Part shown: piece after piece, positions 40,695 through 56,627 of the stretch | How the letters are laid out: every line of letters starts with the position of its first letter | How positions within the stretch are numbered: the stretch's first letter is position 1 | NCBI GenBank assembly: GCA_965649295.1 | Contig: CBFGKH010000001.1 | Location: forward strand, 160,001-224,000 | DNA: 64,000 nucleotides | Source of the DNA: a candidate division WOR-3 bacterium | Lineage (GTDB): Bacteria; Hydrothermota; Tepidihabitantia; Tepidihabitantales; Tepidihabitantaceae | Direction of reading: 5' to 3' | Notes under the pieces: generated by a model | Told to the model about the DNA's origin: nothing | The model's database searches: none | The model's input: the letters and a program-made list of their open reading frames with translations, nothing else | Position numbers and translations under genes: made by a program

Positions 40695-41137
40695 CCGCTC
40701 AGACCAGCCCTAACTCCCGCCGGTAGAACCAGCTAGCCGACTTCACGCCCCTCTCCCCTCCATCGTCCCCGGGATGGTCTCCACACCCGCCTGCTGACAT
40801 TCTTGCATGGGACATTGGCATTCTCATTCCGTTATCCTTGCTGAATTGGCTTCTCTTTGGGTCATCCGAAAGGTTGGCACCGGTATCAGCACAGCTCATC
40901 TCCACTGCGTTTGCTTCAGGACTTCCCCGCCTCCTCGGCTAGACCTCACCTGACGAGTCAGCAGCGACCTTCGCCCTTGCGCTTCGCTCTCGCTCATCAG
41001 AGCTCCGCGCTAATCTCTCTGACAAAGAGCCGCTATCACTCCTGGTCTCGGCCCGGCGTATCTGGTACCGACAGGTGACGGCTAGTCCTTTAGTCTGTCC
41101 TCGTGCCCTTGGTGACGAACCGTGCTTCGCACCTGGT

Positions 41138-41165
41138 TTGACTCAGCCTCCAAGCAGGCTAGAAT
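41138..41165 (+). promoter_or_regulatory. sigma70-type promoter of the iscS-iscU operon
   Basis: TTGACT (41138-41143), 16 bp, TAGAAT (41160-41165). Confidence 0.6.
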
Positions 41166-41214
41166 CGGCTTGCCGGCTCTGAACCGGCACTACTCCGGCT
41201 ACTGTCTAAACTAT

Positions 41215-42456
41215 ATGATGCAGGCTTACTTCGACCACGCTGCTGCCTCGCCGCTGCTGCCCGAAGCCCGTGCTGCGATGTTACCTTTCCTCGAAACCGA
41301 TTTTGGCAACCCAGCTAGCCTGCATCGTTACGGTGAGAAACCCCGCCAGGCAATCGAAGCTGCCCGCCGTGAGGTTGCTGCGCTCATCAACAGTCAGCCT
41401 GAGGAGATTGTCTTCACCTCGTCTGGTTCTGAAGCAAACAATCACGCGGTGAAAGGCTTTGCCCTGGCCCGCCCGGATAAGGGCAAACACCTGATTGTGT
41501 CGGCAATCGAGCATGTGTCGGTGTTGGCCCCGGCCCGGTCATTGAAGAAGCTCGGCTTTGAGCTGACCGAACTCCCGGTTGACCGTAGCGGTGTCGTCCA
41601 TCCCGAAGAGCTCGCTGCCGCGATCCGGCCCGACACTGTCCTCGTTGCCGTGATGCACGCCAACTACGAGGTCGGCTCAATTCAGAATATCAAGGAGCTG
41701 GCCCGAATCGCGCATACCAAGGGCGTGCCCTTCTTCGCTGACGGCTGCGCTGCGGTCGGCCGCATCCCAGTTGATGTTGCCGAGCTTGGTGTTGACGCCT
41801 ACTCTTTCCCGGCCCAGTCAGTCTATGGGCCGAAAGGCGCGGCCGCGCTCTATCTCCGGCGGGGAACTCAGCTTCAGCCATTGATTGAAGGTGGTGTCCA
41901 GGAACGGAATCGGCGGGCCGGCACCGAGGATGTCGCCGCCATTGCTGGATTCGGCGCAGCCGCCGCCGTGGCCAGACAGCACCTTGCCGAATGGTCGCAG
42001 CACCTGAGCCGCCTGGCCAGCCGCATCATCACTGAGCTACCCGCGAAGCTCGAACGGGTCGTCTTGACCGGGCCGCAAGAGAACCGGCTTCCCGGTCACG
42101 TCTCGGTCTGTGTTGAGTTTGTCGAGGGCGAGGCGATGCTGCTTCTGCTCGACGACGAGGGCATCGCTGCTGCCTCTGGCTCGTCGTGCACTGCGAAGAC
42201 GCTCAAGGCATCACACGTCCTACTGGCAATGGGCCTGCCCCACGCGCTGGCCCAGACTTCACTGGTACTGACCTTGGGCAAGGATTCGACCGATGCCGAG
42301 GTAGCTTACCTCCTCGAAAAGCTGCCACCGATTGCCCAGCGACTGCGCCAGCTCTCTCCGCTCTATGCGAAGTTCAAGCGCGGCGAGGACCCGTATGCGA
42401 CCAAACCAAAAGCAGCCTGCGATGACCACGAACACCAAGTTGAAGCCGATGAATAG
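41215..42456 (+). CDS. iscS: IscS/NifS-family cysteine desulfurase-like protein lacking the canonical PLP lysine
   Basis: YFDHAA, FGNPASLH, FTSSGSEANN, IEHVSV, RAGTE, SGSSCT; the SxHK motif reads PAQS. Confidence 0.85.
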   Translation: MMQAYFDHAAASPLLPEARAAMLPFLETDFGNPASLHRYGEKPRQAIEAARREVAALINSQPEEIVFTSSGSEANNHAVKGFALARPDKGKHLIVSAIEHVSVLAPARSLKKLGFELTELPVDRSGVVHPEELAAAIRPDTVLVAVMHANYEVGSIQNIKELARIAHTKGVPFFADGCAAVGRIPVDVAELGVDAYSFPAQSVYGPKGAAALYLRRGTQLQPLIEGGVQERNRRAGTEDVAAIAGFGAAAAVARQHLAEWSQHLSRLASRIITELPAKLERVVLTGPQENRLPGHVSVCVEFVEGEAMLLLLDDEGIAAASGSSCTAKTLKASHVLLAMGLPHALAQTSLVLTLGKDSTDAEVAYLLEKLPPIAQRLRQLSPLYAKFKRGEDPYATKPKAACDDHEHQVEADE

Positions 42457-42534
42457 GAGTGAATGCCCAGTGGCCAGCCCAAGACTGGCGGTCCGGCCCA
42501 AGCCACTGTCCACTGTGACTACTCAGGAGCGCTG

Positions 42535-42912
42535 ATGTACTCAGAGAAGGTAATGGATCATTTCCGCTCGCCCCGTAACGTTGGCGAGATTGAGAACCCG
42601 TCCGGTGTCGGCGAGGTTGGCAATCCGGTTTGTGGTGACATGATGACGTTCTACGTCAAGATTGAGAACGGCATCCTCACCGACGTCAAGTTCAAGACCT
42701 TCGGCTGCGGTGCGGCAATCGCGGTCTCCTCGATGGTCTCAGAAATGGCCATCGGCAAGACCGTTGAGGAAGCCCTGAAGATAACCAATGCCGATGTTGC
42801 CAAAGAACTCGGCGGCCTGCCGCCCAACAAGCTCCATTGCTCGAACCTTGGCGCCGACGCCTTGCACAAGGCGATCGAGGATTACCTTGCCAAGCAGCAG
42901 GAGAAGAAATGA
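42535..42912 (+). CDS. iscU: Fe-S cluster scaffold protein IscU/NifU
   Basis: MYSEKVMDHF..PRNVG, NPVCGD, FGCGAAIA, KLHCSNL; SD AGGAG. Confidence 0.93.
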   Translation: MYSEKVMDHFRSPRNVGEIENPSGVGEVGNPVCGDMMTFYVKIENGILTDVKFKTFGCGAAIAVSSMVSEMAIGKTVEEALKITNADVAKELGGLPPNKLHCSNLGADALHKAIEDYLAKQQEKK

Positions 42913-43106
42913 AGTCGCCCAAAACGACCGCTTGCCGCTGTCCCTACTGCGCCGGGCCGACCGACAAGGAGGGGACAATCTGCACGCCCTGCAGCGTCAA
43001 GATTAGATTCTGTCCCACCTGCGGTAGTCCCCTGCCGCAGGGGTCTGACGATTGTCCCGAATGCGCCGGCAGCCACTCTGCCGGCAGAAAAAGGAAACAA
43101 CGATGA
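42909..43106 (+). CDS. small double zinc-ribbon protein
   Basis: 65 aa with CPYC, CTPC, CPTC, CPEC; ATGA overlaps at both ends. Confidence 0.75.
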   Translation: MKSPKTTACRCPYCAGPTDKEGTICTPCSVKIRFCPTCGSPLPQGSDDCPECAGSHSAGRKRKQR

Positions 43107-43384
43107 CCCTCAATCATCAGTCCGGTACCAACAAGAATCACAAAGTCACCTTCTATGGTCTTTCCACCTGCGGCTGGTGCCGCAAGACCCGAGAATATCT
43201 TGACCAGCACAGCATCGACTACGACTGGATCTACGTTGACCAGACCACCGGCGACGAGCGCAACGAGGTAGTTGCCCGGGTCCGCGAGCTCAACCCGCGC
43301 GGCTCCTACCCAACCGTCGAGATTGATGGCCAGGTCGTGGTCGGCTATGACGAGGAAGAACTGGCCGACCTACTTGGACTATGA
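43103..43384 (+). CDS. glutaredoxin/NrdH-like redoxin
   Basis: LSTCGWCRK, NPRGSYPT, VVGYDE. Confidence 0.88.
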   Translation: MTLNHQSGTNKNHKVTFYGLSTCGWCRKTREYLDQHSIDYDWIYVDQTTGDERNEVVARVRELNPRGSYPTVEIDGQVVVGYDEEELADLLGL

Positions 43385-43902
43385 GCGGTGAAGAGTTTGC
43401 TCCCGAAGTAATCGCCGCCTATGAACGGTTGAAGAAAGAGGCCGAGGCGGGCGGCTACCGGCTCAACCCGGACCGAGAGTTCGTGCTCCGGCTGGTGCAG
43501 GGCCTACTCGAAAACGAACGCCGCTACGGCTACTGGCAATGTCCGTGTCGTCTCGCGTTCGGCGAACGGGCCAAGGACAAGGACGTCATCTGCCCCTGCG
43601 ACTATCGCGACGCCGACCTGGCCGAATACGGTGCCTGCTACTGTGCTCTCTACGTCACTGATGACTGGATTGCCGGCCGGAAACCGCACGGCTCAATCCC
43701 CGAACGCCGGCCGGAGAAGTTTATGAACGAAGGTTACCAGGAATCCACGCCGGTCAGCACCCCGCAGCCAGGACCAACTGCCGCGTTGGCCTATCCGGTC
43801 TGGCGCTGCCGCGTCTGCGGCTACCTCTGCGCCCGACCCGAGCCACCCGACAAGTGTCCTATCTGCAAGGTAACGAAGGACCGGTTTGAGAGGTTCATGT
43901 GA
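43381..43902 (+). CDS. ferredoxin-thioredoxin reductase catalytic domain fused to a rubredoxin-like domain (ferredoxin:disulfide reductase-type)
   Basis: CPCR, CPCDY, CYCALY (FTR 4Fe-4S/disulfide motifs); C-terminal WRCRVCGY...CPICK. Confidence 0.88.
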   Translation: MSGEEFAPEVIAAYERLKKEAEAGGYRLNPDREFVLRLVQGLLENERRYGYWQCPCRLAFGERAKDKDVICPCDYRDADLAEYGACYCALYVTDDWIAGRKPHGSIPERRPEKFMNEGYQESTPVSTPQPGPTAALAYPVWRCRVCGYLCARPEPPDKCPICKVTKDRFERFM

Positions 43903-44219
43903 GTAATAAGGGAAATGTCATTGCTGAGCTGACCGTGGTCCCGCTCGGCACCGGTTCCACCAGCCTCAGTCAGTATGTCCGCATCGTCGAGCAGATGATT
44001 GCCGCCAGCGGCCTCGAACACACCCTGACACCGATGGGCACCTGCGTCCAAGGCGACCTCGATGCAATCTTTGCCGTCGTCAAGCAGGCCCACGCTGCGC
44101 TGGCTGCTGCCGGCTGTGCTCGCATCTCAACCCATATCAAGCTCGACGACCGCCGCGACAAAGAGCGGAAGATGCAGGACAAGATTGACGCTGTGCTGGG
44201 CAAGCCTGCCAGCCGCTAG
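43899..44219 (+). CDS. MTH1187/UPF0045 thiamine-binding protein
   Basis: IAELTVVPLGTGSTSLSQYV, LTPMGT..QG, RISTHIKLDDRRDK. Confidence 0.88.
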   Translation: MSNKGNVIAELTVVPLGTGSTSLSQYVRIVEQMIAASGLEHTLTPMGTCVQGDLDAIFAVVKQAHAALAAAGCARISTHIKLDDRRDKERKMQDKIDAVLGKPASR

Positions 44220-44228
44220 CTGCCAACG

Positions 44229-44912
44229 CTAGATCTGTTCTTCATCGAAGAACAGGTTGACGAACTGGATTCCCGGTGTCTTGTTCAGGTCCTCGATGAA
44301 ACGACTGCTGCCGGCCTTGTCGCGCAGCCGCACGTAGAACGAAGCCTCAACCAGCTCGGTGTCACCCAACGTTCGGACATTGATTGGCGTTACCTTCTGG
44401 CAGTGCCGGTCAAGCACCGCCTGATAGGTCGGCGTACTGCCGTCACCCGGTCGGTAGTTGAACTGAAGCAGGTAATCATCACGCCGGGGGGCGGCAAACT
44501 TCGCTTTGGCCAGCAGTAGCACGGTCAGACCGATAACAACCGTACCCACAACCGCAATGGTGTAGAAACCGACACCAGTCGCCATTCCGATTGCAAGGGC
44601 CAGGAACACGAAAACGATGTCCTGCGTGTTCTTCACCGCGTGCCGGAAGCGAACCACCGACAGGGCGCCGACCAGTCCGAATGCCCGGGCCAGGTTGTTG
44701 CCAATGACCATGATCATTATCGCCGTGGTCATGGCTAGAAGAATAAGCGTGTTGGTATAGGCAACAGAGTACCCTGGCCCGCGATAGGACTTGCGATAGA
44801 CCCAGGCAATGAACAAGCTACAGATAAAGGCTACTGCCAGCTTGAGCACAACGATTGGTGCTTCGAACGGCAGCAGGTTCAGCGAATGCACAAACTGCCT
44901 CAGAACCTCCAT
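44229..44912 (-). CDS. DUF4956 membrane protein
   Basis: IGNNLARAFGLVGALSVVRFRHAVKNTQDIVFVFLALAIGMATGVG, about 4 TM helices plus a soluble C-terminal domain. Confidence 0.88.
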   Translation of the reverse strand: MEVLRQFVHSLNLLPFEAPIVVLKLAVAFICSLFIAWVYRKSYRGPGYSVAYTNTLILLAMTTAIMIMVIGNNLARAFGLVGALSVVRFRHAVKNTQDIVFVFLALAIGMATGVGFYTIAVVGTVVIGLTVLLLAKAKFAAPRRDDYLLQFNYRPGDGSTPTYQAVLDRHCQKVTPINVRTLGDTELVEASFYVRLRDKAGSSRFIEDLNKTPGIQFVNLFFDEEQI

Positions 44913-44913
44913 A

Positions 44914-45768
44914 TTACCTCTCAGTTCCTGCCCTGGCACCAGCTACTGGGGCAAACTCGGTCCAATGCGCCACCCCGCCCAGAAATTTCTTCTCGCGCCG
45001 CTGCACTTCAATGCCGGTCGCATACTTTGAGAAAGCCTGCCGCTGGAGATTGAATCGGCTGAGCCAGTTCCGCAACCACGCTGGCAGCGTCAGATAGAAC
45101 TTCACCTCGAGGATGAAGTGACCGGGAATCAGGAATGTGGCGTCGCGATCCGAATATAGCGATTCGAGTGCCGGATAGAGCCGTGAACGAATGTTCTTGT
45201 CAAAGGTGATCCGTAACCGCGGATCGAAACGGCCGAAGAAGGCCTCCCGTTCGTAGGCGACCAGCACTACCGGCAGCAATCGGCGTCGGTAATAGTTGTA
45301 AAGGAACCGGCTGGCGGCTTCGGCCGCCGCCGATCCTGGCGCAAAGGGCAGTACCTCGTTCTTGGGCCCGTAGCCGGCAAAAACCGACGGCAACTGGTCC
45401 CAGCGCACCGGTGCGCGATGCTTACTGATGAAATCCTCGTACCGACGCTTGATTTCGAGAAAAACAACGCTGTCTGGCCCGAGCCGATCGTAGCCGCGAA
45501 TGCGAAACTTCTTCTTCAGCCGGAATCCGTCAAACTTCTCATAGTAGCAGCCGAACCGCCGATTGTCGTAATAAATGCTGCGCACGGTGTATTGCCGGTC
45601 CGGACGCTGGGCGGAGAACGGATCAAGCCGCACATACGGCATCATCGCTGCCCGCAACTCCCCCAGCAGCTCGTTCGCTACCATGAATTTGTACTCCAGC
45701 CGACCAACGGGTTCGGCCGGCTGACTGCCCCAAGCCGCCCGACCAGCCCGTACCCGCAACCAGCTCAC
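44914..45768 (-). CDS. VTC-domain (CYTH superfamily) polyphosphate polymerase
   Basis: RLEYKF, YTVRSIYYDN, KFRIRGY, FLEIKRR, YEREAF, RITFD, ILEVKF, FSKY. Confidence 0.9.
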   Translation of the reverse strand: MSWLRVRAGRAAWGSQPAEPVGRLEYKFMVANELLGELRAAMMPYVRLDPFSAQRPDRQYTVRSIYYDNRRFGCYYEKFDGFRLKKKFRIRGYDRLGPDSVVFLEIKRRYEDFISKHRAPVRWDQLPSVFAGYGPKNEVLPFAPGSAAAEAASRFLYNYYRRRLLPVVLVAYEREAFFGRFDPRLRITFDKNIRSRLYPALESLYSDRDATFLIPGHFILEVKFYLTLPAWLRNWLSRFNLQRQAFSKYATGIEVQRREKKFLGGVAHWTEFAPVAGARAGTER

Positions 45769-47396
45769 TCGCCAGCTCGCGCTACCACGAATCTGACACG
45801 CTGCTCGTCAGCACCCAACCTGGCGCCCGCGAAATAAACACCTGGCTCCAGCCCAAGTTGAGCCGGCCGCAGTTCAATGCGCTGACTACCAGCAGCAGCC
45901 GTAACCGGCTGCAATCGTGCTCGAACGCGTCCAAGGCCATCCCAGATAACTGGCTGTACCCACGTCGGCGTACTCAGTTCCAGCCGCAGTTCGGCTTGCT
46001 CGCGGCAGGGATTCGGTGTCACGATCAGCACTGCTGCCCTGGCCCGCCGACCGGTGTCGCGCTCGCTAATGCCCAGCACCGGATAGCGCGCTGTCGCGTA
46101 GTCGCTGCCCGTGCTGCCACCATCGCTAGTGCCAGTGACGCAGATACCGTGGTCAGCATCAGCGACCATTGCCACTGGTTCATCGAGCCTGCTCGCTGGC
46201 CCATCGTAGCGATAGACCCAGCACTGGTTACCGAACGAGTCATAGACAACCGTGGCGTAGTCGTTGCGCGTACCATCGCCAGTACTCGTTCCAGCCACCG
46301 CCACCCAGCTGCCGTAATCGTCCACCGTAATCGCTCGCGCCTCATCAAACCCATGGCCTGGTCCGTCATAGCGCGCGACCCATTCCTGTCCGCCGCCACT
46401 ATTGAACTTCAGCGTCACGAAGTCGAAGTCGTTCTGGGTATCTTGACTGTAGCCGGTAACATAGACATTGCCCCAGTAATCAACCTCGATGGCATTGGCC
46501 CAGTCCACGCCATTGGCCGGCCCATTGTAGGTGACTGCCCAGAGTGACTCGCCGGTTGAGCCGTACTTGACGACGGTCAGATCAACACTGCTGGTCAGCC
46601 CAGTTGTACCGCCGGCAACACAGACGTTGCCGAACCGGTCGAGCACCATCGCCTTGACTTCATCATCGTCGTCGGCCTGACCATTCAGTCGCCTGACCCA
46701 CAGGGTCTCACCAGTCCGACCATCGAACTTGGCAGTCACCATGTCCCAGCGCAAGGTGTAGGGACTACCACTGTTGCCAGCGGCATAAACGTCGCCATTG
46801 GCATCAACCGCCACTGCCACCGCGTAGTCAAATTCGGGAGTCACATAGCTGCTGACCCAGCGCCGAACTCCGTCGCTGCCGTATTTGAGCACACACCAGT
46901 CCCATTCGGTCCCGGCACCGCTCTGATAGCCGGCAGCAATAATAGCTCCCGAGCTGTCGAATGCGACTGCCAGCCCATCTTCATTGCCCGCTGCCGGCCC
47001 GTCGTAGCAGGCTGACCAGATTGGCGTGCCGTTTGTGGCGTCATGAACGAGCAGCAGCGCATCGGTCATGAAATTGCTGGCGGTTACGCTGCCCGCAACC
47101 GCTACCCGTCCTCGGGCAACAGCAATTGCCCGACCTTCATCTGCTCCCTGCTGCGTACCGTCATAACGCATCGCCCAGAGCGATTCGCCGGCAAGACTAT
47201 ACTTGATTGTCAGCACATCGAACGAACTGCCGCCCCAGCTCGTTCCGGTCACATAGACACCGCTGGCATCGTTGGCGGCAATCGCTGCCGCCCTGTCCTC
47301 ATCGTTTGCTGGCCCGTTATAGCGCATTACCCAGCTCGAACCAGTACATAGTCCGGCCAGCACAACCAGTAGTCCTATCAACTGTTTGCATCTCAT
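45765..47396 (-). CDS. secreted SBBP-repeat beta-propeller protein with T9SS-like C-terminal domain
   Basis: About 7 repeats of W..RY(D/N)GP...D...AI.VD..GNVYVTG.S...D..T.KY; C-terminal PNP...PGVYF. Confidence 0.85.
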   Translation of the reverse strand: MRCKQLIGLLVVLAGLCTGSSWVMRYNGPANDEDRAAAIAANDASGVYVTGTSWGGSSFDVLTIKYSLAGESLWAMRYDGTQQGADEGRAIAVARGRVAVAGSVTASNFMTDALLLVHDATNGTPIWSACYDGPAAGNEDGLAVAFDSSGAIIAAGYQSGAGTEWDWCVLKYGSDGVRRWVSSYVTPEFDYAVAVAVDANGDVYAAGNSGSPYTLRWDMVTAKFDGRTGETLWVRRLNGQADDDDEVKAMVLDRFGNVCVAGGTTGLTSSVDLTVVKYGSTGESLWAVTYNGPANGVDWANAIEVDYWGNVYVTGYSQDTQNDFDFVTLKFNSGGGQEWVARYDGPGHGFDEARAITVDDYGSWVAVAGTSTGDGTRNDYATVVYDSFGNQCWVYRYDGPASRLDEPVAMVADADHGICVTGTSDGGSTGSDYATARYPVLGISERDTGRRARAAVLIVTPNPCREQAELRLELSTPTWVQPVIWDGLGRVRARLQPVTAAAGSQRIELRPAQLGLEPGVYFAGARLGADEQRVRFVVARAGE

Positions 47397-47397
47397 A

Positions 47398-48930
47398 CTA
47401 GCGCCCCTTCACAATCTGTCTTACCAGCCGTTCTGGAGCCGAACCGTCGGCCGGGACCAGCCTGAGCGCCACGAAATAGACCCCGCGCGTCAGACCTGAA
47501 CCCGGCCTAAACTCAACTGCGACGGTTCCGGTCGGCTGCTGCGCGTCAATCAATCGCGCCACAACCCGGCCAGTAGCGTCGTAAACCTCGAGCGTTACCC
47601 AGCCGGGCGACGGCAACTCACAACTGATGGTAGTGGATTGGTCGAAAGGTGAACCCACCGCGACTGCTAGTTGCCTGCTCGCTAATGGTGCCTTATCCTC
47701 CACACCAGTTGCGAAGTCACGCGGATACTTCAGACAGCGCCCAATCTGCCCGCCGAGACTCCGGGTCCAGACCACCGAACCAGAAGGTGTAATCTCCTGG
47801 ACAACACCGGTCGTACCAAGAATGGCGAACGTATTGCCGTTAGGCAGACGGTAGGCGCCGCCGAGATGCTGTGAATAGAAAGCGCTGCCGTTAGAGTAAG
47901 ACCAAGTTCGTGTTCTAGGCCCAAATGCCGAATCCGGAGCAATGTAGTAGTTGCCCTCTGAGTCGAGCGGCGGTGTTATCTGGATGACTTCTGAGTAGTC
48001 GTTGGCAGTGCCTGACCGATCACCGTTGTTGAGCACGATAATGTCACCCGCGCCCGGCAGGCCCGGCCGAATCCAGTTCGCGCCATGCACCACGTAGAAG
48101 ACTCGGTCGGCAGCTGTGCCGCGGTCATAGTTCTGAGGATTGCCCCAGCGATAGAGAAAATCACCGCCCCGCCCACGCCTGCCGCCAGTGTGGCCGGCTG
48201 CTTCAGCCGTGGTCGTACTGTGGTCAATCACAAAGATTTCGTGCAGATTGTGCGAGGTGAGAATTATCTCATCTCGCTCGGCATTGTAGTCAATGGTATT
48301 GCAGTGCATCCAGTCGCCGTTCTGAACTGTGCCGAGATTGATGTCAAGTAATTCCGGATGCTCGGCGACAACACCGTAGTTAGGCAACGCTGGGTTGACG
48401 TCCTGAATCAGGTGATCCCAGAAGTGCCACTCCCAGACGACCGCGTTGCTCACCGGGTCGTACTCAATTACCTCGTCTGGCCAGATTTCACCGGTGATAT
48501 TCTGTCGGCCGAGCGCCTGCGCCTGCGCCGCCGTCTTGCGCTCCCATGATATCAGCAGAACATGACCGTTCGGCATCACACAGAAATCATGGTGCTGTTG
48601 ATGGTTTGCATTCGACCAGATGAAGCTCTCGACGATGTTACCGTTCCAGTCATACTGCTGCATCAGCCCACCGTAGGCAGCGCCGCGCATCGTCGCCCCG
48701 GAATAGACATCACCACGCCAGATAGAACTGTCCGGCATCAGGTAAGCGACGTAAGCGCAGTTGACCGTGCCAGTCCAAGACCGCACTGTCTGGCCGTTGT
48801 TGTCAATCAACCGGGTCGTCCGGCTATTCATTAGGTTGTACAGCGTCAGACCATCAAATACCTGCGCTGAGACAACTCCCGCCAGACTGCATACAGCCAT
48901 AAACGCAGTCAGTGTTGTTCTCTTCAGCAT
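47398..48930 (-). CDS. secreted aryl-sulfate sulfotransferase (ASST) family protein with T9SS-like C-terminal domain
   Basis: QHHDF, VWEWHFWDH, DWMHCNTIDY, GDFLYRWGNPQNY, RLPNGNT; C-terminal GVYF. Confidence 0.85.
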   Translation of the reverse strand: MLKRTTLTAFMAVCSLAGVVSAQVFDGLTLYNLMNSRTTRLIDNNGQTVRSWTGTVNCAYVAYLMPDSSIWRGDVYSGATMRGAAYGGLMQQYDWNGNIVESFIWSNANHQQHHDFCVMPNGHVLLISWERKTAAQAQALGRQNITGEIWPDEVIEYDPVSNAVVWEWHFWDHLIQDVNPALPNYGVVAEHPELLDINLGTVQNGDWMHCNTIDYNAERDEIILTSHNLHEIFVIDHSTTTAEAAGHTGGRRGRGGDFLYRWGNPQNYDRGTAADRVFYVVHGANWIRPGLPGAGDIIVLNNGDRSGTANDYSEVIQITPPLDSEGNYYIAPDSAFGPRTRTWSYSNGSAFYSQHLGGAYRLPNGNTFAILGTTGVVQEITPSGSVVWTRSLGGQIGRCLKYPRDFATGVEDKAPLASRQLAVAVGSPFDQSTTISCELPSPGWVTLEVYDATGRVVARLIDAQQPTGTVAVEFRPGSGLTRGVYFVALRLVPADGSAPERLVRQIVKGR

Positions 48931-48983
48931 TCAAGACCTCCTACTACGTTGGGACGAACGAATCGGCAGCGTCTTGCTGGCGC

Positions 48984-51254
48984 TCATCTTGTCATCACTA
49001 GCTTAGTACAGGTTGAACCGCCGCCGTTCACGGTAAGCTGGACAAAGTAAACTCCAACGCCCCACCCTGACTCGGGACGGAAGTCAAACGTGTGCCAACC
49101 CAGTGTCGGCTGATACTCATCCTGCCCAGCGGCCAGCCGACCGGCCGCATCATAGACTCGCAGCGAGACCCTGGCCGGGCAGGGCAGCAAGTAACTGATT
49201 CTCGTTGAGCTCCGGAATGGATTGGGCAGGGCGACCAGCTGATACCGGCCGTCGGTTACGGTCACCACTTCTTCACTCACACCAATGCCACTCTGGTTTG
49301 CTCTGTCCGGTGTCGGGCTCATCAGCCGGAACAAGCCAGCGCCGTCCGGAAAACGCCCGTAGCTGATGTCTGCTCTTTGTGGCCCGAACGTTACACGATC
49401 GAGTGGCCGACCGTCATCATCGGCAAACAGCACTGTCTCGCCTGAACTTGAGAGTTGGAAGTTGGCATGTAGCCCAGGTTGATTGGTATCGCCATCGGCC
49501 CAAACCAGAAGATACCCTCCAGCGGGAATCGTTACATCGGGAAACACCCACTTGGCGATGGTAGCCGAGTCATCAGTCAGCAGAAATCCATCTAGAGCAA
49601 CCGCACTGTTCGTCGGGTTATGCAACTCAATCCAGTCGTCATACTCCCCAGCCGGGTCACGGACTGTGCTAACATTGTCCGCCATTAGCTCATTGATGAC
49701 AACCCTACCCGTCACCGGTAATGATAGGTATTCCTGTTCAGCCCGTGCCGGCGCGAATGTGCCGGCACCTCTGTTCTCCGCATAGATGTAATAGTGGACA
49801 TCACCGGAGCCGATTCTCACCGCTGTTCCGTAGCGGCCGTCACCAGCAGCGCCGTCACCGTGCAGCCCGTCATCGTACAGCGGTGTTAACACAAATCTCA
49901 ACCCTGGACTCTGACCCCAGCCAACCCAGACTGAGTCAGCATTAGCGACATCAGCAGTGAACTGCAGTAGGCCGCCCGGCACCGCCGGGCAAGGATTGGC
50001 AGTCACGGCACCAATAGTCGGGGACGATGCGCGAAACTCGCTATCGTTCAAGATGAAGCTGACGCGAGGATTCATCAGCTCAGTCAGCCCGACGACCGCC
50101 AGCGGCCCAGTTCCAACCGACCGGGTAATGTTGTTCAGAAAGTCGTTGTAACTGTAGAACTTGTTCGGGTCAGCCTGAACGTAGGAATCAATGATATCCT
50201 GAATCTCTAGCGCCCGCTGTCGGTACCAGTTGTTCGAAAAGACCTCGGCGATCATCGTCTTCATGTGGGCGACGTACATCCGTCGCAGCCGCGGATTGGA
50301 CAGAATCTTGCTCGCAATCGGGTAGTTCGTGTCGTTCTGCCGCAGGAATGGGTCAAGCTGCTGCATCTGACCCAGCGTCAGGGTTCCGACGCCGATAAGA
50401 TTGCGAAACACACCGAAGCTCTCGTTTAGGTCCCAGACAATCGGATTGAACCGCCGAGCCGCATCTCGATACAGATAGAAGTTCTGCGGCATGTTGATTG
50501 GTGCATCAAGATTCACAAGCAGCGCATCGAACGCCAGCATCCAAAGGTGGCGATCAACGTTCAGCACTCGGTCAACCACCTCCGTGAAGTTGTTTAGAGT
50601 GTCGAGCAAACTAACAAGCTCGGTCCAGCCCGAGTCAGACTGCAGTTCGAAGTAGTCGCGGTACGGTGTCGGGTCCGGCCCCAGATACTTCCAACCAATC
50701 ATCTGGGAGTTGTTCGTCAGCCGGCCCTTGAATCGAGCGTTCTCGTCACAGTAGAAGTGGGTACGCATGAACATCCGGTCCGGGTCCTCATTGTTGCTGT
50801 ACAAACCCAGTAACGTGTCGTTGACGTAGATGTTAGCGTAGTTGGACCTGCCGGCTGGCATGTACAGCCTGGCAATCTCATAGCTCAGCGCCTCGCGTAC
50901 GAAACTTGGGTCATTGAAGACATTGGCCAGCCGTAGCGTACCGTGTCCCTCAATCGTCTGACCAGGACGAACATAGTCGAGCTTGATATTGAAGGGATTC
51001 TTGCGCCGACCCGGCGAATAGGAAGAACCGCCCTTGTAGCGCACACCCACGCTGTCGAATCGCTGACCATTGATTACCGCCGTACCAATCAGCCGACCCT
51101 CTTCGCCCGCCGCATACAGGCTGTCGAGAATCTCATCCCAGTTTGGCTCAGCGAAGCTCAGTCTGATTTCGTTCACCTGTTCGATGTCAAAGAAGCCGGC
51201 GCTTGCTATCGTGAGACCAAGAAGCAGAGTTCCCGCCAGCCGTTGCCTGCCCAT
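48984..51254 (-). CDS. secreted CotH kinase family protein with lamin-tail domain and T9SS-like C-terminal domain
   Basis: VGVRYKGGSS, DPSFVREALSY, GLYSNNE, NLD...NFYLY, PIVWDLNESFG; LYDDGLHGDGAAGDGRYG repeat; LTD VINELMADN...DWIELHN; PNPF...GVYF. Confidence 0.9.
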   Translation of the reverse strand: MGRQRLAGTLLLGLTIASAGFFDIEQVNEIRLSFAEPNWDEILDSLYAAGEEGRLIGTAVINGQRFDSVGVRYKGGSSYSPGRRKNPFNIKLDYVRPGQTIEGHGTLRLANVFNDPSFVREALSYEIARLYMPAGRSNYANIYVNDTLLGLYSNNEDPDRMFMRTHFYCDENARFKGRLTNNSQMIGWKYLGPDPTPYRDYFELQSDSGWTELVSLLDTLNNFTEVVDRVLNVDRHLWMLAFDALLVNLDAPINMPQNFYLYRDAARRFNPIVWDLNESFGVFRNLIGVGTLTLGQMQQLDPFLRQNDTNYPIASKILSNPRLRRMYVAHMKTMIAEVFSNNWYRQRALEIQDIIDSYVQADPNKFYSYNDFLNNITRSVGTGPLAVVGLTELMNPRVSFILNDSEFRASSPTIGAVTANPCPAVPGGLLQFTADVANADSVWVGWGQSPGLRFVLTPLYDDGLHGDGAAGDGRYGTAVRIGSGDVHYYIYAENRGAGTFAPARAEQEYLSLPVTGRVVINELMADNVSTVRDPAGEYDDWIELHNPTNSAVALDGFLLTDDSATIAKWVFPDVTIPAGGYLLVWADGDTNQPGLHANFQLSSSGETVLFADDDGRPLDRVTFGPQRADISYGRFPDGAGLFRLMSPTPDRANQSGIGVSEEVVTVTDGRYQLVALPNPFRSSTRISYLLPCPARVSLRVYDAAGRLAAGQDEYQPTLGWHTFDFRPESGWGVGVYFVQLTVNGGGSTCTKLVMTR

Positions 51255-51269
51255 CGCGTTAATCAGGAA

Positions 51270-52259
51270 TCACCGCCGGCGGCCAGAATTGGAGCGACCC
51301 GGCGTAGGTACCGGTAGTAGGCGCCAGGTGTCACCGCCATCCGGAAGCCTCCCGTAGGCGGTGTCCGGGGCCTGCGGGCCAAAACTCAAAGTATCAACTA
51401 TCAGAATGTTGTGGCCGCTTGCCTGGTACAGACCAACCTGCTCACCGACCGCTGCCCCCAGGCTGAAAGTCGCGTGCAGTGGCCCTTCCGCTGGCTCATT
51501 GTCGGCCCAGACCAGTAGAAAGCGTCCTGGCCCCAGCACCACATCCGGAAACGGCCACTTGGTCGGTTGGGAGAGGTCGTCGGTCAGATAAACCCCCTTA
51601 AGCCCTATCGGTTCGCTACCGGCATTGTAGAGTTCAATCCAGTCATCGTAGTCACCGGCCTCATCGATCACCACCGTGTGGTTGGAAGCAAGAAACTCAT
51701 TTATGAAAAGCAGATGGGCCAGACTCGATTCGCCAGTCGAGTTGGCTGCGCCCGGAGTTGGTGCCCAGAGCCGTCGCCACTCACCACCATCCGGAACGCG
51801 CCCCATCGAAGTATCGGCTCCCTGAGGACCGAATGATAACGTGTCAATAACGAAAAGCCGCTCACCGTTTGTGGCATAGAGCCCAAGCTGCTCGCCGCTG
51901 TCAGCATTGAGCCGAAAAGAGGCGTGCAGTGCGCCCTGACGATACTCAGCATCAGCCCAGACGATGAGAAACCCGCCGGCTGGGATGAACGTATCCGGGA
52001 AAGACCACTTCATCGGCCGGGAAAGGTCGTCGGTGAGGAACATAGTGCCCAAGCGCAGACTCGTATCCCCAGCATTGTACAGCTCGATCCAGTCCGCGTA
52101 GTCGCCGAACTCATCAGCCACGGTCCGCTTGTTTGAAGCCATGAACTCGTTTATGAATAGAGTCCCGTGTAGCGGTGATTCGGCTGGCTGTGTCGGGCCA
52201 GCGCTGCAACCGCCAGCCAAGAATACTACTGCCACAATCAGAACCGTTCGTCGGCTCAC
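51270..52259 (-). CDS. lipoprotein with two lamin-tail domains
   Basis: Lipobox-like LAGGC; two copies of LFINEF(M/L)ASN...DE.GDY.DWIELYNAG...LTDDLS.P.KW.FP...GR.PDGG..W....PTPG..N. Confidence 0.85.
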   Translation of the reverse strand: MSRRTVLIVAVVFLAGGCSAGPTQPAESPLHGTLFINEFMASNKRTVADEFGDYADWIELYNAGDTSLRLGTMFLTDDLSRPMKWSFPDTFIPAGGFLIVWADAEYRQGALHASFRLNADSGEQLGLYATNGERLFVIDTLSFGPQGADTSMGRVPDGGEWRRLWAPTPGAANSTGESSLAHLLFINEFLASNHTVVIDEAGDYDDWIELYNAGSEPIGLKGVYLTDDLSQPTKWPFPDVVLGPGRFLLVWADNEPAEGPLHATFSLGAAVGEQVGLYQASGHNILIVDTLSFGPQAPDTAYGRLPDGGDTWRLLPVPTPGRSNSGRRR

Positions 52260-52272
52260 ATCTCACCTCCGA

Positions 52273-53262
52273 CTAGAAACTCGCCTGGGTCTGAATTCTT
52301 ATCTCCTGGGCAAAGGTCGGCCGCGAAGTGAAGTCCGCGGTCCAACCTACCTTTAGCTGTAACTGCTGTTGCAGCTGCCACGTACCTCCGACAGTTGCAG
52401 TTGTCCGCCAGTCACTGCGTCTCAGAATATCCTGATAGAACCGTTCCAATCGCAGCCAGGGTCTGGCCGGCCCAATCCGATATGCTCCTGTCAGTGTCGC
52501 GCCGAGCATAGTCGTCCCCGCATCAGCCGCACCGACCAGCAGCTCAGCTTCGGCATCGGCATTGCCCAGACACAGACTGGCATCAGCGCCATAGGCAATG
52601 ACCAGTCTGCCTGTTACCGAATCATGACGCTGGGTTGCGTTGAGACCAAAGTTGACGCCGCTGGCCGGTTTGAGCTCGATGCGCTGAGCTAACTGCTTGG
52701 CGTCGTTATCGTCACGGGCAAGCCGCGTACCGGTGCCGTTATACACACCTGCCGCGTAGCTGAGTAACAGCGAACCGAGCCGCAGGTCACCCATCGTCGT
52801 AAGACCGATGTCACGGCCAAGAAAACCCCGGTCAGCAAAAGCCTCATTGGTGATGCCACGCTCAATTGCCAGGAGCTTGCTCGCCGCTGTTAGTTCCTCG
52901 CGGCTGAACGGCAGCTTGCCCAGCCCAACAACGAGCTTCAGGCCGGACAACGCCTGATATCCGACAAATGCATCCTTGATTTCGGGTATCAACTCATCAC
53001 AGCCAAGCTCGATGCCAGACTGAAGCCTTGTTTGCTGGTAGTTGAACCTGACCCTGATCCGACGCAGGATGAAGCTGTGGTGCGGATAGACGCCAACGTG
53101 AGTATCGTAGTACCACTGGGCGTGAACGTAGCCACTTACTTCTGGCCGCTTCGCCCCACTTTGCCCACTGCCGGTAGCCAATCCGGCCAGGAGGGCGACG
53201 ATCAGCAGCAGCGCACTAGTCCGCACTGTATCTTTGCGCACAGAGCAGCCCACTCTGTGCAA
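52273..53262 (-). CDS. outer-membrane porin, phosphate-selective OprO/OprP-like (start uncertain)
   Basis: Signal peptide; VSGYVHAQW, FILRRIRV, IKDAFVGY, G..KLPFSRE, GRDIG, Y.AGVYNG.G...DDNDAK; C-terminal Phe. Confidence 0.7.
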   Translation of the reverse strand: MHRVGCSVRKDTVRTSALLLIVALLAGLATGSGQSGAKRPEVSGYVHAQWYYDTHVGVYPHHSFILRRIRVRFNYQQTRLQSGIELGCDELIPEIKDAFVGYQALSGLKLVVGLGKLPFSREELTAASKLLAIERGITNEAFADRGFLGRDIGLTTMGDLRLGSLLLSYAAGVYNGTGTRLARDDNDAKQLAQRIELKPASGVNFGLNATQRHDSVTGRLVIAYGADASLCLGNADAEAELLVGAADAGTTMLGATLTGAYRIGPARPWLRLERFYQDILRRSDWRTTATVGGTWQLQQQLQLKVGWTADFTSRPTFAQEIRIQTQASF

Positions 53263-53279
53263 GTAACCACTCGAATACC

Positions 53280-53325
53280 ATTGTAGGCCGTGCCTTTAGG
53301 ACTACAAGTGTTAACACAGTGTTTA
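53280..53325 (-). promoter_or_regulatory. promoter of the porin-CotH-VTC operon with an OmpR/PhoB-type direct repeat
   Basis: Minus strand: TAAACA (53325-53320) and TTAACA (53314-53309) at 11-bp period, abutting a weak -35 TTGTAG (53307-53302), 16 bp, TACAAT (53285-53280). Confidence 0.5.
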
Positions 53326-53367
53326 GACACAGGACCGGCGCTGTTCCTGCGTTGTTCTCTTGAATCT

Positions 53368-53418: not shown

Positions 53419-54132
53419 TCACTGCCCGACCTGACCGGAAACGACAGCCAGGGCACCCTCAAGCCTGAATGCCCGCTTTTCTCGGCCAAGTCTGGCCCAG
53501 AGCGCAGCCGAGTACTCACCAGCCTCAAACCCAGCCGGCACCGCTATTGTCGGGTTGAACTCGCCTTTGGGGATGAGCAATAGCACTTTAGAACTCTCGG
53601 CCGCACTGCTACCGGTTGCCGGCCGATGGAATGTCACCTCGAGCCAGCGGCTGTCTCGGGCATTACCACTGACTGTCAGAATCCGTTGGCCGTCCCTTGT
53701 GCCGACCTGGGTTTCCAACGCCGCCAGCGAATCGGCCAAGCGCAACTTCTCCGGTCCACTCGTGACCGAGCCCTTGCCTAGTGCCTTCAGCCCAACCGGC
53801 CGCACCGCTACCTCATCATCACCCAGCTTCCGCTGCCATAGCCCGACCTCGTAACTCCCCTGATAGTAGTCAGCCGGTATCGGCACCGGCAGCAGGAACC
53901 TGCCCTTGACCGAATATACTGTCCGCTGGCCCTGGCAGGTCGAATCTGGCTCGCCTGGCCGAAAGAAGGTCACTGCCAGCCAGTCACTGGCGTCAGGTGC
54001 GACACCGGTAACTTCGAGCACCGGCCTGCCTTCCTTTTTACTGACTCGCGCTGACAAGGTCGGCAGCGAATCTCCAGCGACTGCCGGCTGAACCAGCACA
54101 AGGGACAGAAAGAACAACATCGGCTTCGACAT
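53419..54132 (-). CDS. exported hypothetical protein with two tandem beta-rich repeats
   Basis: SD GGAGG, signal peptide MSKPMLFFLSLVLVQPAVA; two similar units G..(V/I)L.V(T/S)G...WL.VTF.RP...KG.F...PA....G.Y...LW..LG. Confidence 0.7.
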   Translation of the reverse strand: MSKPMLFFLSLVLVQPAVAGDSLPTLSARVSKKEGRPVLEVTGVAPDASDWLAVTFFRPGEPDSTCQGQRTVYSVKGRFLLPVPIPADYYQGSYEVGLWQRKLGDDEVAVRPVGLKALGKGSVTSGPEKLRLADSLAALETQVGTRDGQRILTVSGNARDSRWLEVTFHRPATGSSAAESSKVLLLIPKGEFNPTIAVPAGFEAGEYSAALWARLGREKRAFRLEGALAVVSGQVGQ

Positions 54133-54169
54133 TAGCACCTCCAGCAGGTCGGTCTGGAATGCAAGCTGA

Positions 54170-54198
54170 TTGACGAACCTCAGGCCCGTCCGTATGAT
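54170..54198 (+). promoter_or_regulatory. sigma70-type promoter of the TonB-dependent receptor
   Basis: TTGACG (54170-54175), 17 bp, TATGAT (54193-54198). Confidence 0.55.
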
Positions 54199-54233
54199 AC
54201 GCCAAATAGCACCTGTTGCAATCGGAGGTAGTG

Positions 54234-56627
54234 ATGGCAAAGCTCGTCCTCTTTTTTCTCCTCTGCCGCCAAGCCCTAGCTACTTTAACGCCGACCGGTA
54301 GCATTGCTGGTTACGTCATCGATGCCGCCACCCGCTCACCACTACCTGGCGCCAGCGTGACCGTTGTCGGCACCGAACTTGGGGCTGCTGCCGATGCTGC
54401 TGGCCGTTTTGTGATTAACCGTGTTCCGGTTGGCATCCACACGGTTGAAGCCTCAATGATCGGTTACGCAGCCCAGGCCCGTACCAACAGCGTAGTCAGC
54501 CCAGGCCGCCAGACTGAACTCTCCTTCCGACTCAGCCGGGCACGAATCAGTATCGGTGAAGTCACGGTTCGTGTCGAACACTTTCCCCGCGTCAAGGACG
54601 CAGCTGTCTCCCAGCGCAACTTTGCCGCTCAGGAGATTGAAATTGCTCCGGGCGGGCTGGGCGACATTCAACGCGTTGTCCAAGCGATGCCCTCGGTTGT
54701 CTCCTCCGGTGACCAAGACAATGAGGTCATCGTCCGCGGCGGCAGCCACAATGAGAATCTCTTCCTGATTGACGGGATTGAAATTCCCTATCCAAACCAC
54801 TTCGGCTCGTTTGCAGCCCAAGGTGGTCCGGTCAACATTCTCAACCCTCTGCTCGTTCGGGAAGTTGATTTCGTGGCCGGTGCTTTTCCGGCCCGCTACG
54901 GTGGCCGCGCCTCTTCAGTGATGGATATCAGCCTCAAACGCGGCTCGCTCGAAGAACTGGACGGCAGTATTGATATGGGGATGGCCGGGCTTGGTGTTGT
55001 GTTCGAATCACCGCTGCCCGGCCGCACCGGCTCATTCATCGGTTCCTATCACAAGAGCTTTCTGGAGCTGATGGCCCGGATGGGTGTCTGGGGAATGTCT
55101 GCAGTTCCCTACTACGACAACGCACTGGGCAAGGTGATTCTTCGCCCCTGGCCTGGTCATGAGTTCTCGCTGTTAGGACTGTGGGGCAGCGACCACATCT
55201 ACATCGGACCGGGCGAGAACGTGGACGAGAATACCTATACGATTAGGCAACAAACGCAGCGCTACGCCGGTGGCTTCGGCTGGCAAAGCCTGTTCGGCAA
55301 CCACGGCTATGGCCGACTGCTCTTGTCAACCAACAGCACTTCCTGGAACGCCTTTGTCCATGAGAGTACAGACGTCAACGACACGCTCCAGTCCCTCAAG
55401 TCGTCTGTCGGCACGCTCGCGGCCCGCTACGACGCTGCCCTGCGACTCGCCCCGGGCCAAGAGACACAGACTGGTGTGATGCTAAGCCGCACACCGGCTG
55501 ACATGCAGTTCTTTCTCAAGCCCTCGCCTTTCTACCGCTATCTCTACAACCCCGACAGCTCGATTGCCGACTCGTTTCCCGTGCTTGACTCGGCCGGCAA
55601 TCCAACCTACTGGACGATGAATAGCTACGGCCAGGCCAGCTCGGTCAACCTTTCGGCCTACCTCTCCCACCGCATCGAGCTCGGCCGTCTTCTTGATGTC
55701 ACTGCTGGGTTGCGGCTCGACCGTTTCGGCTACACCGGCGCGACAAGCATCGCTCCCCGCCTTGGCATCGCCACCCATCCTCTCTTCGGTGGTGCCAGCC
55801 TGCATGCCGGCTGGGGCTGGCACTTTCAGCCACCAGAGTGGTACATCCTCTTTGCCGACACGGTTGCCAACCGCAATCTCCGTGACCGCCGCAGCGACCA
55901 CTATGTTGTCGGGATAGAACGCCGGTTCGGTCAGGACATCAGGTTGTCGCTCGAGGGCTTTGTCAGGCGCAGCCGCTACCTTCCAATCCCCTACTCGGCG
56001 ACTACGCCCGACACCTACGACTATCCCAGTAACTACCTAGCTCAGGGCCGTGGCGGGTCAGAGGGACTTGAGCTCTTCGTCCAGAAGAAGCACGCTGGTA
56101 ACTGGCACGGTTCACTCGCCTACTCTCTTTCCCGTTCTTGGGTCATCGCTGCCCAAGACTCGACCATCCGCTACCCTGGCGACTACGACTACCGCCACAT
56201 CCTGACGGCTGCCGGCACCTACACGATCGAGTTCCACAAGCAGCAATGGTATCAGCACCTGCCGGGCTGGTTCCGCTCCACCATCGGTGGCCTGCTCTTC
56301 TCCGACGTAGCGGCCATTGGCCTGCGCTGGCGCTACCTGAGCGGCCGGCCCTATACCGAACCAAGCTGGAATCCGGAGATTCGTCGCTGGATTGCCGCTC
56401 CTGCGAACCTGAACAACCAACGCTATCCGGATTACCACCGCCTCGACATTCGCTGGGACCACAAGTTCTTAATGAAACGCTGGAGCCTCAACTGGTACCT
56501 CGAAATCCAAAACGTCTATGGGCGCCGCAATGTCTGGATGTATCAGTACAACGACGGCAATCCAGACCGTAGGACAGTTTATGGCCTAGCATTCTGGCCG
56601 ATGGCGGGAATGGTCATCGAGTTCTAG
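54234..56627 (+). CDS. TonB-dependent receptor with N-terminal carboxypeptidase-regulatory-like domain
   Basis: GSIAGYVIDAAT..PLPGASV, plug motif VRGGSHNENLFLIDGIEIP.PNHF, GAFPARYGGRASSV, YHRLD, NVYGRRN, C-terminal EF. Confidence 0.9.
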   Translation: MAKLVLFFLLCRQALATLTPTGSIAGYVIDAATRSPLPGASVTVVGTELGAAADAAGRFVINRVPVGIHTVEASMIGYAAQARTNSVVSPGRQTELSFRLSRARISIGEVTVRVEHFPRVKDAAVSQRNFAAQEIEIAPGGLGDIQRVVQAMPSVVSSGDQDNEVIVRGGSHNENLFLIDGIEIPYPNHFGSFAAQGGPVNILNPLLVREVDFVAGAFPARYGGRASSVMDISLKRGSLEELDGSIDMGMAGLGVVFESPLPGRTGSFIGSYHKSFLELMARMGVWGMSAVPYYDNALGKVILRPWPGHEFSLLGLWGSDHIYIGPGENVDENTYTIRQQTQRYAGGFGWQSLFGNHGYGRLLLSTNSTSWNAFVHESTDVNDTLQSLKSSVGTLAARYDAALRLAPGQETQTGVMLSRTPADMQFFLKPSPFYRYLYNPDSSIADSFPVLDSAGNPTYWTMNSYGQASSVNLSAYLSHRIELGRLLDVTAGLRLDRFGYTGATSIAPRLGIATHPLFGGASLHAGWGWHFQPPEWYILFADTVANRNLRDRRSDHYVVGIERRFGQDIRLSLEGFVRRSRYLPIPYSATTPDTYDYPSNYLAQGRGGSEGLELFVQKKHAGNWHGSLAYSLSRSWVIAAQDSTIRYPGDYDYRHILTAAGTYTIEFHKQQWYQHLPGWFRSTIGGLLFSDVAAIGLRWRYLSGRPYTEPSWNPEIRRWIAAPANLNNQRYPDYHRLDIRWDHKFLMKRWSLNWYLEIQNVYGRRNVWMYQYNDGNPDRRTVYGLAFWPMAGMVIEF

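Follow-up and report, generated by a model that had tools for sequence, protein, structure and literature searches.

How does a kinase that has been exported from the cell obtain its phosphoryl donor? ATP is lacking in the periplasm and at the cell surface, and the question thus arises for the secreted CotH kinases, which many bacteria that do not sporulate possess (among Bacteroidota, 119 of 301 genomes). It is posed in a particular form by seven genes lying within a stretch of 64,000 nucleotides (the window; positions 160,001 to 224,000 of contig CBFGKH010000001.1, assembly GCA_965649295.1) of a candidate division WOR-3 bacterium, where an exported CotH kinase is encoded together with a VTC protein and a DUF4956 membrane protein. 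The model we propose is tentative, our confidence in it falling a little short of even: the operon would be a lineage-specific version of a widespread VTC-DUF4956-CotH module, in which polyphosphate (polyP) made in the cytoplasm would be carried over both membranes to the predicted surface kinase. It is built on what was observed: the block of genes and its joint inheritance, the likeness of the VTC protein to Vtc4 in fold and residues, and the interchangeability of the envelope partners. The locus is a new variant, which adds a porin form and an altered clade of arylsulfate sulfotransferase (ASST) to a module known in print without a mechanism.

The operon

Seven open reading frames (ORFs) of the minus strand follow one another, in transcription order, as porin, LTD lipoprotein, CotH, ASST-like protein, propeller, VTC, DUF4956:

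52273..53262, minus strand: OprO/OprP-like outer-membrane porin with a C-terminal Phe (PF07396, 27 bits)
51270..52259, minus strand: lipoprotein with two lamin-tail (LTD) domains (PF00932 twice) and the lipobox LAGG-C, read from sequence
48984..51254, minus strand: exported CotH-family atypical kinase (PF08757, E 6e-39) with choice-of-anchor X, LTD and a tail like those of the type IX secretion system (T9SS)
47398..48930, minus strand: exported ASST-like beta-propeller (PF05935, Arylsulfotrans)
45765..47396, minus strand: exported SBBP/delta-60-like beta-propeller with a C-terminal Ig-like tail (PF06739; NF047494 sub-threshold)
44914..45768, minus strand: cytoplasmic VTC (Vtc4-type triphosphate tunnel) protein, 284 aa, no membrane segment (PF09359, E 5e-38)
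44229..44912, minus strand: DUF4956 inner-membrane protein (PF16316; sub-threshold MgtC)
53323..53350, minus strand: predicted promoter of extracytoplasmic function (ECF) sigma type, GCAGG-17 nt-GTCTAA, about 60 nt before the porin ORF

The gaps of 13, 15, 53, 1, -4 and 1 nt given in the initial annotation are exact on recheck, and the domains it named in the seven genes all score above the Pfam cut-off, the porin match being weak and partial (27 bits for a cut-off of 20.9, residues 74-199 only; relatives reach 43 and 56 bits). Its span to 53325 holds as regards the seven genes and fails as regards the boundary, 53325 being the upstream in-frame stop; the porin start codon is TTG 53262 or GTG 53226. 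The operon has a G+C content similar to the remainder of the window and is convergent with a thiamine-binding-protein gene ending at 44219. The genome (2.28 Mb, rated 100% complete) has one VTC, one CotH, a PPK1, two TolC-like genes elsewhere and no match to PPK2.

A Vtc4-like protein beside an MgtC-like membrane protein

The suggestion that the VTC protein is Vtc4-like, and not a generic CYTH protein, is borne out by its tunnel residues and by its fold. The best fold match of its model (pLDDT 86.8) is Vtc4 (3g3r; E 8e-16, TM 0.69), the other CYTH/tunnel enzymes giving E values of at least 3e-7 and TM values of at most 0.46. All 129 aligned sequences share the equivalents of Vtc4 K200, R264, R266, R361, E426, K428 and K458, and 128 of them that of K281; by alignment to Vtc4 the window protein has K27, R89, R91, R174, E221, K223 and K248 as tunnel equivalents. 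K200, K281 and K458 presumably act within the Vtc4 tunnel. On this alignment and model, polymerase activity of the bacterial protein is likely. It does not merely degrade the product of PPK1, since no more than 2 of the 12 VTC-positive relatives (3 of 41 relatives overall) have that kinase. A weak search of proteins of 498-2000 aa gave no VTC fusion; among the 150 best representatives a single protein, P0126 (718 aa), carries a family-2 glycosyltransferase fused to a C-terminal VTC, for which read-through is possible.

The DUF4956 model (pLDDT 77) consists of five predicted helices, four strongly hydrophobic and one with an Arg-rich RFR end, followed by a cytoplasmic ACT domain that resembles the C-terminal domain of MgtC; the ACT fold is the only structure matched, and the MgtC and MgtC/SapB models match below cut-off. 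Among 104 diverse sequences, Y39, R88 and R90 are kept in 103-104. The idea that VTC and DUF4956 form a split analogue of Vtc4/Vtc1 is not supported in that form: DUF4956 is not a detectable homologue of Vtc1, and has an MgtC-like membrane domain and ACT instead. Basic TM1 residues line the polyP channel of the yeast VTC complex (PMC9911596). As no Vtc1 homology was detected, a similar role of the DUF4956 arginines in lining a polyP passage is offered by analogy only.

Co-inheritance within the phylum

Close DUF4956 homologues carry the label candidate division WOR-3. Of the loci of 11 relatives, 7 show all seven genes in this order, and in the remaining 4 nothing departs from it before the contig ends, so that the arrangement is not due to chance; ASST is present in one to three tandem copies, and the LTD lipoprotein is 56-61% identical in family relatives. 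VTC occurs in 12 of 41 relatives, all of them in the window's family, and the VTC and CotH matches fall in the same 19 of 201 phylum genomes, in one of which CotH is under the cut-off and VTC has an internal stop. Presence is patchy inside genera (2/5, 1/2, 1/2, 2/3 and 1/4), which suggests that the block is gained or lost as a unit, with the reservation that kin are not independent. A locus reading DUF4956 - weak CotH - VTC (G046:C5, L028), with one in-frame TGA in VTC, is possibly a decaying copy.

The co-conservation of porin, LTD and ASST with the VTC/CotH core, as first supposed, is found within the phylum and does not extend across the Fibrobacterota-Chlorobiota-Bacteroidota (FCB) lineages. 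With profiles of the operon members, the porin orthologue (at least 395 bits, next best 126) and the operon-type ASST (at least 638 bits, next best 545) each occur in 17 of the 201 genomes, all VTC-positive; weaker porin and ASST paralogues do occur in VTC-negative ones. For the wider view we took 80 GTDB loci selected by DUF4956, the VTC sequences diverging too much in alignment to serve as a seed. These loci, the top 80 of more than 529 and with a bias towards FCB-like lineages, contain VTC (78 loci), an unannotated protein of about 356 aa (62), CotH (35), LTD (30), an SdiA-regulated propeller (17), ASST (8), an SBBP propeller (7) and the porin (4).

Envelope partners of the VTC-DUF4956 pair

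What accompanies the pair where the porin is missing? The profile of the 356-aa family matches TriA, MacA, ZneB and EmrA (E 5e-9 to 2e-5), HlyD models match 48 of 48 members, all below cut-off, and its Atlas neighbours are RND/HlyD adaptors; this family is, by prediction, a periplasmic adaptor of the HlyD type. Three further sets were compared: 48 Bacteroidota loci selected by VTC (from 53 matches, 3 not included and 2 fragments left out), 12 Chloroflexota loci of 15 matches, 10 of them with both VTC and DUF4956, and a gut Firmicute-type set, highly redundant with many near-identical members, in which 69 of 80 loci have both. The expected pairing is found almost everywhere, VTC standing directly upstream of DUF4956 in 78/78 DUF4956-selected, 46/48 Bacteroidota and 10/12 Chloroflexota loci; DUF4956 lies within three genes of VTC in all 48 Bacteroidota loci, and in most lineages the two are translationally coupled.

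In the 48 Bacteroidota loci the pair is flanked by an adaptor (29), a DUF2490 barrel (11), a porin (1) or none of these (7), and never by two of them. An envelope partner is thus present in 41 of these loci, and in 66 of the 78 DUF4956-selected ones, where the HlyD-type adaptor accounts for 62; the remaining 12 are 4 from Anaerolineae, 7 cut by contig ends and 1 truly without an exit. None is present in the 10 Chloroflexota loci or in the 69 of the redundant gut Firmicute-type set, which carry CotH (8/10 and 56/69) or Cthe_2159. The envelope-crossing partner found beside VTC-DUF4956 in most two-membrane bacteria favours export; its presence tracks the type of envelope.

The same observations bear on a different reading, which we consider improbable, where DUF4956 would not be a channel at all but an MgtC-like regulator sensing, through its ACT domain, the cytoplasmic polyP that VTC makes or turns over, the exported genes being co-regulated cargo for envelope stress or surface remodelling. 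The sub-threshold MgtC matches and the MgtC-like ACT domain agree with it, as do the action of MgtC on ATP synthase and PhoR (PMC12345266), the wide variation of the exported partners (CotH, Cthe_2159, SdiA-regulated propeller, ASST) and a shared ECF-type motif, which could account for the clustering. It leaves unexplained, however, why diderms should tie a dedicated HlyD-type adaptor, barrel or porin to the pair when the monoderm sets have none, and why the adaptor stays with DUF4956 after the loss of VTC (18 of 20 loci, see below).

Wide conservation is limited to VTC-DUF4956, with CotH in loose association; the seven-gene set is a lineage-specific form, other two-membrane bacteria having an HlyD-type adaptor or a DUF2490 barrel in place of the porin. 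The general design is VTC-DUF4956 with an exit appropriate to the envelope and exported enzymes. Porin_O_P-like genes adjoin VTC-DUF4956-CotH in two further arrangements (L208 and L278). The replacement of the adaptor by the porin is not strict, because two WOR-3 loci (L022 and L026) carry both, the adaptor being shortened to 286 aa with a hairpin region of about 65 residues versus 136; they are possible intermediates. The window operon has no adaptor, the best match in its genome being a MacA-like gene elsewhere (E 6e-7).

Among the wider loci, four (L067, L079, L080 and L087) have a separate 160-aa CYTH gene just upstream of adaptor-VTC-DUF4956, two of them with a Pit phosphate transporter too. 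CotH-VTC-DUF4956 lies inside a surface-polysaccharide cluster in Pseudobutyrivibrio (L111:5241-20651) and follows a CDP-glycerol glycerophosphotransferase gene in the gut loci L172-L174; such neighbours hint at a glycan acceptor.

The ASST clade and the exported proteins

The ASST of the operon is unusual at one position of its active site. H282, which is invariant in 71 of 71 sequences, is likely the equivalent of AssT His436, a match that we assume from the motif. Alignment to AssT (3elq) places H114, H209 and N211 at His252, His356 and Asn358, the His252 segment being a weak match, and puts His227 at the position of Arg374, the sulfuryl-binding residue described as conserved in all published ASTs (PMC13426309; 10.64898/2026.10.08.757629). 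A His occupies this position in all 40 VTC-linked ASSTs, which come from WOR-3, two Zixibacteria loci and one Bacteroidota locus (same-genome duplicates removed) and form a single clade. Among 31 unlinked paralogues, taken from 20 regions and from the window genome itself, 20 have Arg and 8 have other residues; the remaining 3 have His, and one of these lies within the linked clade. The change from Arg374 to His is one evolutionary event, not 40, and it marks a specialised ASST clade that accompanies the VTC core across phyla. This operon-linked clade is a new observation; that it has switched from sulfuryl to phosphoryl transfer is speculation. The Zixibacteria loci L046 and L051 have an independent arrangement, adaptor-VTC-DUF4956-ASST-ASST-FGE-sulfatase-domain-CotH, with ASSTs of the same His-type clade.

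CotH aligns to Bacillus cereus CotH (5jd9) with its NxD (248-250) and WD (274-275) motifs kept. The beta-propeller is the least specific member of the operon, as it has many paralogues in the genome. Of the three T9SS-like tails first described, all lie below the TIGR04183 (T9SS type A tail) cut-off of 23, with scores of 21.6 for CotH and 19.6 for ASST and no match at E<=0.01 for the propeller; in favour of the description, the three tails cross-match those of other exported proteins, and PorV-like and SprA-like genes are present in the genome. In the porin, R67, R68, K116, R135, R150, K189 and R194 are invariant in 11 sequences, no alignment to a solved OprP or OprO being obtained. Since the porin has no sequence match in the PDB, its phosphate selectivity is inferred only.

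Proposed model for the delivery of polyphosphate to the predicted surface kinase

In the model we propose, the VTC protein would polymerise the gamma-phosphates of ATP into polyP. DUF4956 would oligomerise, its conserved arginines (R88 and R90, and also R76) lining a passage, as the basic TM1 residues of Vtc1, Vtc3 and Vtc4 do in yeast, that conducts the polymer into the periplasm under the gating of the ACT domain. The OprP-like porin would then pass the anion over the outer membrane, a step that in other diderms would fall to a DUF2490 barrel or to an HlyD adaptor joined by a duct of TolC type. CotH, exported by a T9SS-like pathway, would draw on polyP to phosphorylate a surface protein or glycan, with the LTD lipoprotein and the propeller serving as scaffolds, and the Arg-to-His ASST clade would share with it the surface acceptor or the donor. 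Expression of the block would be turned on by an ECF sigma factor. A bolder version, which taken as a whole we find rather doubtful, would see here a third, PPK-independent, bacterial polyP synthase, operating on an MgtC-fold channel with swappable outer-membrane exits and powering ATP-free surface phosphorylation by CotH, with an ASST clade rewired to phosphoryl transfer via a phospho-histidine.

If the model is true, it provides a coupled route of polyP synthesis and export in prokaryotes, and a function for DUF4956 and for the unannotated adaptor family. The core idea, which rests on comparative genomics, is not unique to the window locus and its uncultured lineage, and can be tested in tractable hosts, Bacteroides thetaiotaomicron, Corynebacterium glutamicum and Methanosarcina acetivorans, each of which scores for VTC, DUF4956 and CotH.

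Observations that weigh against the model

A number of observations speak against delivery of polyP as just described. OprO and OprP are import porins, and the loci L022 and L026 hold porin and adaptor together. The N-terminal motif of the VTC protein is RxEYK, in which the first Glu of ExExK is replaced by Arg (as R196 in Vtc4) and the second acidic residue is retained: position 25 is Glu in 129 of 129 aligned sequences, and Glu or Asp in 79 of 80 broad homologues, where Vtc4 has Thr198. The ExExK motif binds two metals in the hydrolases of the triphosphate tunnel metalloenzyme family (PMC9582702). Literature on the biochemistry of any bacterial VTC protein was not found; no VTC subunit stands among the listed profile and monomer-model matches of DUF4956; the weak fusion search mentioned above gave no VTC-DUF4956 fusion; and the window genome has a PPK1 as well.

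The direction of the porin invites an inward reading, which seems to us very improbable: phosphate or sulfate species released at the surface by the exported enzymes would be imported by porin and DUF4956 and then stored as polyP, or hydrolysed, by VTC. Beyond the uptake role of OprO/OprP, a few loci have a Pit transporter and a CYTH gene close to the core, 17 of the 80 loci have a phytase-like propeller, and MgtC promotes phosphate uptake (cited in PMC12345266). Against it, the commonest partner (62/78) is an HlyD-type adaptor, a family that serves export, CotH is a kinase and not a hydrolase, and the block has no binding protein or ABC importer.

A further objection concerns VTC itself, which is not an obligatory partner of DUF4956 or CotH. 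In the 301 Bacteroidota genomes all 48 VTC-positive ones have CotH, but so do 71 of the 253 VTC-negative ones, and 40 of these 71 have DUF4956 too. In 20 of 20 VTC-less DUF4956 loci (19 genomes) the VTC gene is absent, an unfiltered profile search included; the idea of a divergent VTC hidden there was discarded, the 240-aa gene that follows the duct gene encoding a short-chain dehydrogenase in all 6 cases tested. Eighteen of the 20 loci read DUF4956-adaptor-(about 410 aa), several adjoining CotH or LTD genes, and the 410-aa gene bears only a weak likeness to TolC, three copies matching at E 0.001-0.003 and the one scanned against Pfam giving no match. Operons of this kind, with VTC absent from locus and genome and CotH in the genomes, are seen in L284-L301 (Bacteroidota, e.g. 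G437, G361 and G293). In a tree, the DUF4956 proteins of VTC-less loci fall among VTC-linked ones in three separate positions, which suggests repeated loss of VTC. PPK1 is present in 38 of the 40 VTC-less DUF4956 genomes, most of which look closely related and for which the PPK1 baseline was not taken, and is thus weakly compatible with a polyP cargo; the other 2 have neither VTC nor PPK1 (PPK2 was not searched).

Deletions in Streptococcus intermedius (PMC12345266) bear on the same question. All four accessory deletion mutants still aggregated, and only those of DUF4956 and CotH were reduced, each by more than half in sputum medium; the VTC deletion was not reported as reduced. The two reductions speak for the model, but Pel moved in opposite directions, deletion of DUF4956 giving more of it and that of CotH less. 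Taken together, the VTC-less loci and these deletions point to DUF4956 and CotH as a constant pair with VTC as a replaceable supplier, or else to a small donor such as ATP.

The latter possibility, which we judge unlikely, is that what DUF4956 sends out to CotH is a small phosphoryl donor, be it ATP, some other nucleotide or pyrophosphate/tripolyphosphate; VTC would then be an accessory tunnel enzyme that trims or makes a short phosphate species and not a long-chain polymerase. The adenine nucleotide bound by characterised CotH, to which the window kinase is related by its 5jd9/5jda match, agrees with this, and so do the persistence of DUF4956, adaptor and CotH without VTC (in two genomes also without PPK1), the silent VTC deletion next to the two that are not, and the hydrolase-type acidic residue kept in VTC. 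Yet the fold and residues of VTC are far nearer to Vtc4 than to any hydrolase (TM 0.6-0.7 versus at most 0.46), its gene is translationally coupled to DUF4956 in most lineages, and a leak of ATP through porin or duct would be costly. In the model of polyP export, VTC is best read as a dedicated supplier to a constant part made up of DUF4956, exit and CotH, since PPK1 is present in most lineages that lack VTC.

Comparison with known systems

The yeast VTC complex (Vtc4/Vtc3/Vtc1; 3g3q, 3g3r, 7ytj, 8i6v; PMC9911596) shares with the operon the Vtc4-type tunnel domain, the catalytic basic residues and the E426 equivalent, and here too the enzyme, which is soluble, is paired with a small membrane protein bearing conserved arginines. 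Unlike it, the window VTC is a single domain of 284 aa without SPX domain or fused membrane helices, has an extra acidic residue in the first tunnel strand, and has an MgtC-like/ACT partner and not the DUF202/Vtc1 three-helix domain of the 15-helix channel; moreover, there are two membranes to cross. VTC is treated as eukaryotic in the reviews PMC12526157 and PMC13318637 and in PMC13484657, the last of which (a 2026 preprint) describes PPK-independent extracellular polyP in B. cereus, calls the export mechanisms unknown and reports no VTC4 homologue.

The same three families form one operon in the Gram-positive pel accessory trio cotH-polyphosphate polymerase-DUF4956 (10.1101/768473; PMC12345266, SIR_1592-1594), where CotH is secreted and DUF4956 is described as MgtC plus ACT; the trio also appears in a Clostridium perfringens locus table (PMC2879425). 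The window operon differs by its porin, LTD lipoprotein, ASST and propeller. A linkage of the window operon to pelDEADAFG was discarded: the genome has no PelG match and the neighbours are unrelated. In PMC12345266 (2025) the trio was not found outside pel loci, whereas it is widespread outside them in our survey. The two Pel papers propose regulation of Pel or of phosphate metabolism, not export. The literature searched, subscription papers apart, contains for the trio no mechanism, export proposal, adaptor or porin variant, in line with the initial annotation, for which the co-occurrence was familiar as annotation only.

With the tripartite efflux systems (MacAB-TolC, EmrAB-TolC and type I secretion) most diderm relatives of the core have in common a membrane-fusion-protein adaptor, which stands beside DUF4956; they differ in having no ABC, RND or MFS pump in the core, and the window version has a porin and no adaptor. 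The window ASST resembles AssT (3elq; PMC13426309) in the His252, His356 and Asn358 equivalents and departs from it in the His for Arg374 and in the T9SS-like tail. The kinase domain has the NxD and WD motifs of the Bacillus spore-coat kinase CotH (5jd9); unlike the latter, the window protein has a signal peptide, an LTD and an export tail, and belongs to a non-sporulating diderm.

Regulation and neighbouring genes

Control of the operon by an ECF sigma factor is likely from the upstream motif. GCAGG-17 nt-GTCTAA (53350-53323) is matched at 10 or more of 12 positions upstream in 6 of 12 relatives, for a mean of 0.38 and a maximum of 3 in 200 runs of shuffles. The pattern occurs three times in the genome, which has about five ECF factors, and one copy lies between ECF sigma and zf-HC2 anti-sigma genes. 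A comparable motif (9-10 of 12) precedes ECF genes that adjoin adaptor-type operons in three further genomes; the GCAGG-GTCTAA form is not typical upstream of adaptor-type operons themselves (2/59). The strict GGAAC-spacer-GTC pattern was found in 0 of 12 relatives, and a scan for sigma-70 promoters and terminators gave counts at the level of shuffles (5 versus 3.9 and 10 versus 7.8). An ECF sigma gene, a zf-HC2 anti-sigma gene and a Metal_resist-like gene with the same promoter-like motif lie at G000:C8:53882-55383 (L279:2882-4383), and similar triads are found near the VTC operons of L038, L044 and L077.

The ORF of 273 aa upstream of the porin (53419-54240, minus strand) was rejected as a member of the operon: it belongs to no family (no Pfam or NCBIfam match), is separated by a gap of 156 nt and has no match in the loci of the 11 relatives. 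It shows an apparent internal duplication. The genes converging on the operon (41122-44219, plus strand) end with a ferredoxin-thioredoxin reductase/rubredoxin fusion and the thiamine-binding protein, and the earlier ones we take to be cysteine desulfurase-like, NifU-like and glutaredoxin-like. Further on, a segment of lower G+C (0.54; 38569-40454, plus strand) presumably encodes a DNA methyltransferase (DPPY motif) and then a probable type II restriction enzyme. On the other side, 54216-63725 contains a divergent TonB-dependent receptor, a DUF3795 protein, a PHP protein, a helix-hairpin-helix protein, a DUF5723-like barrel and an unannotated protein of 630 aa.

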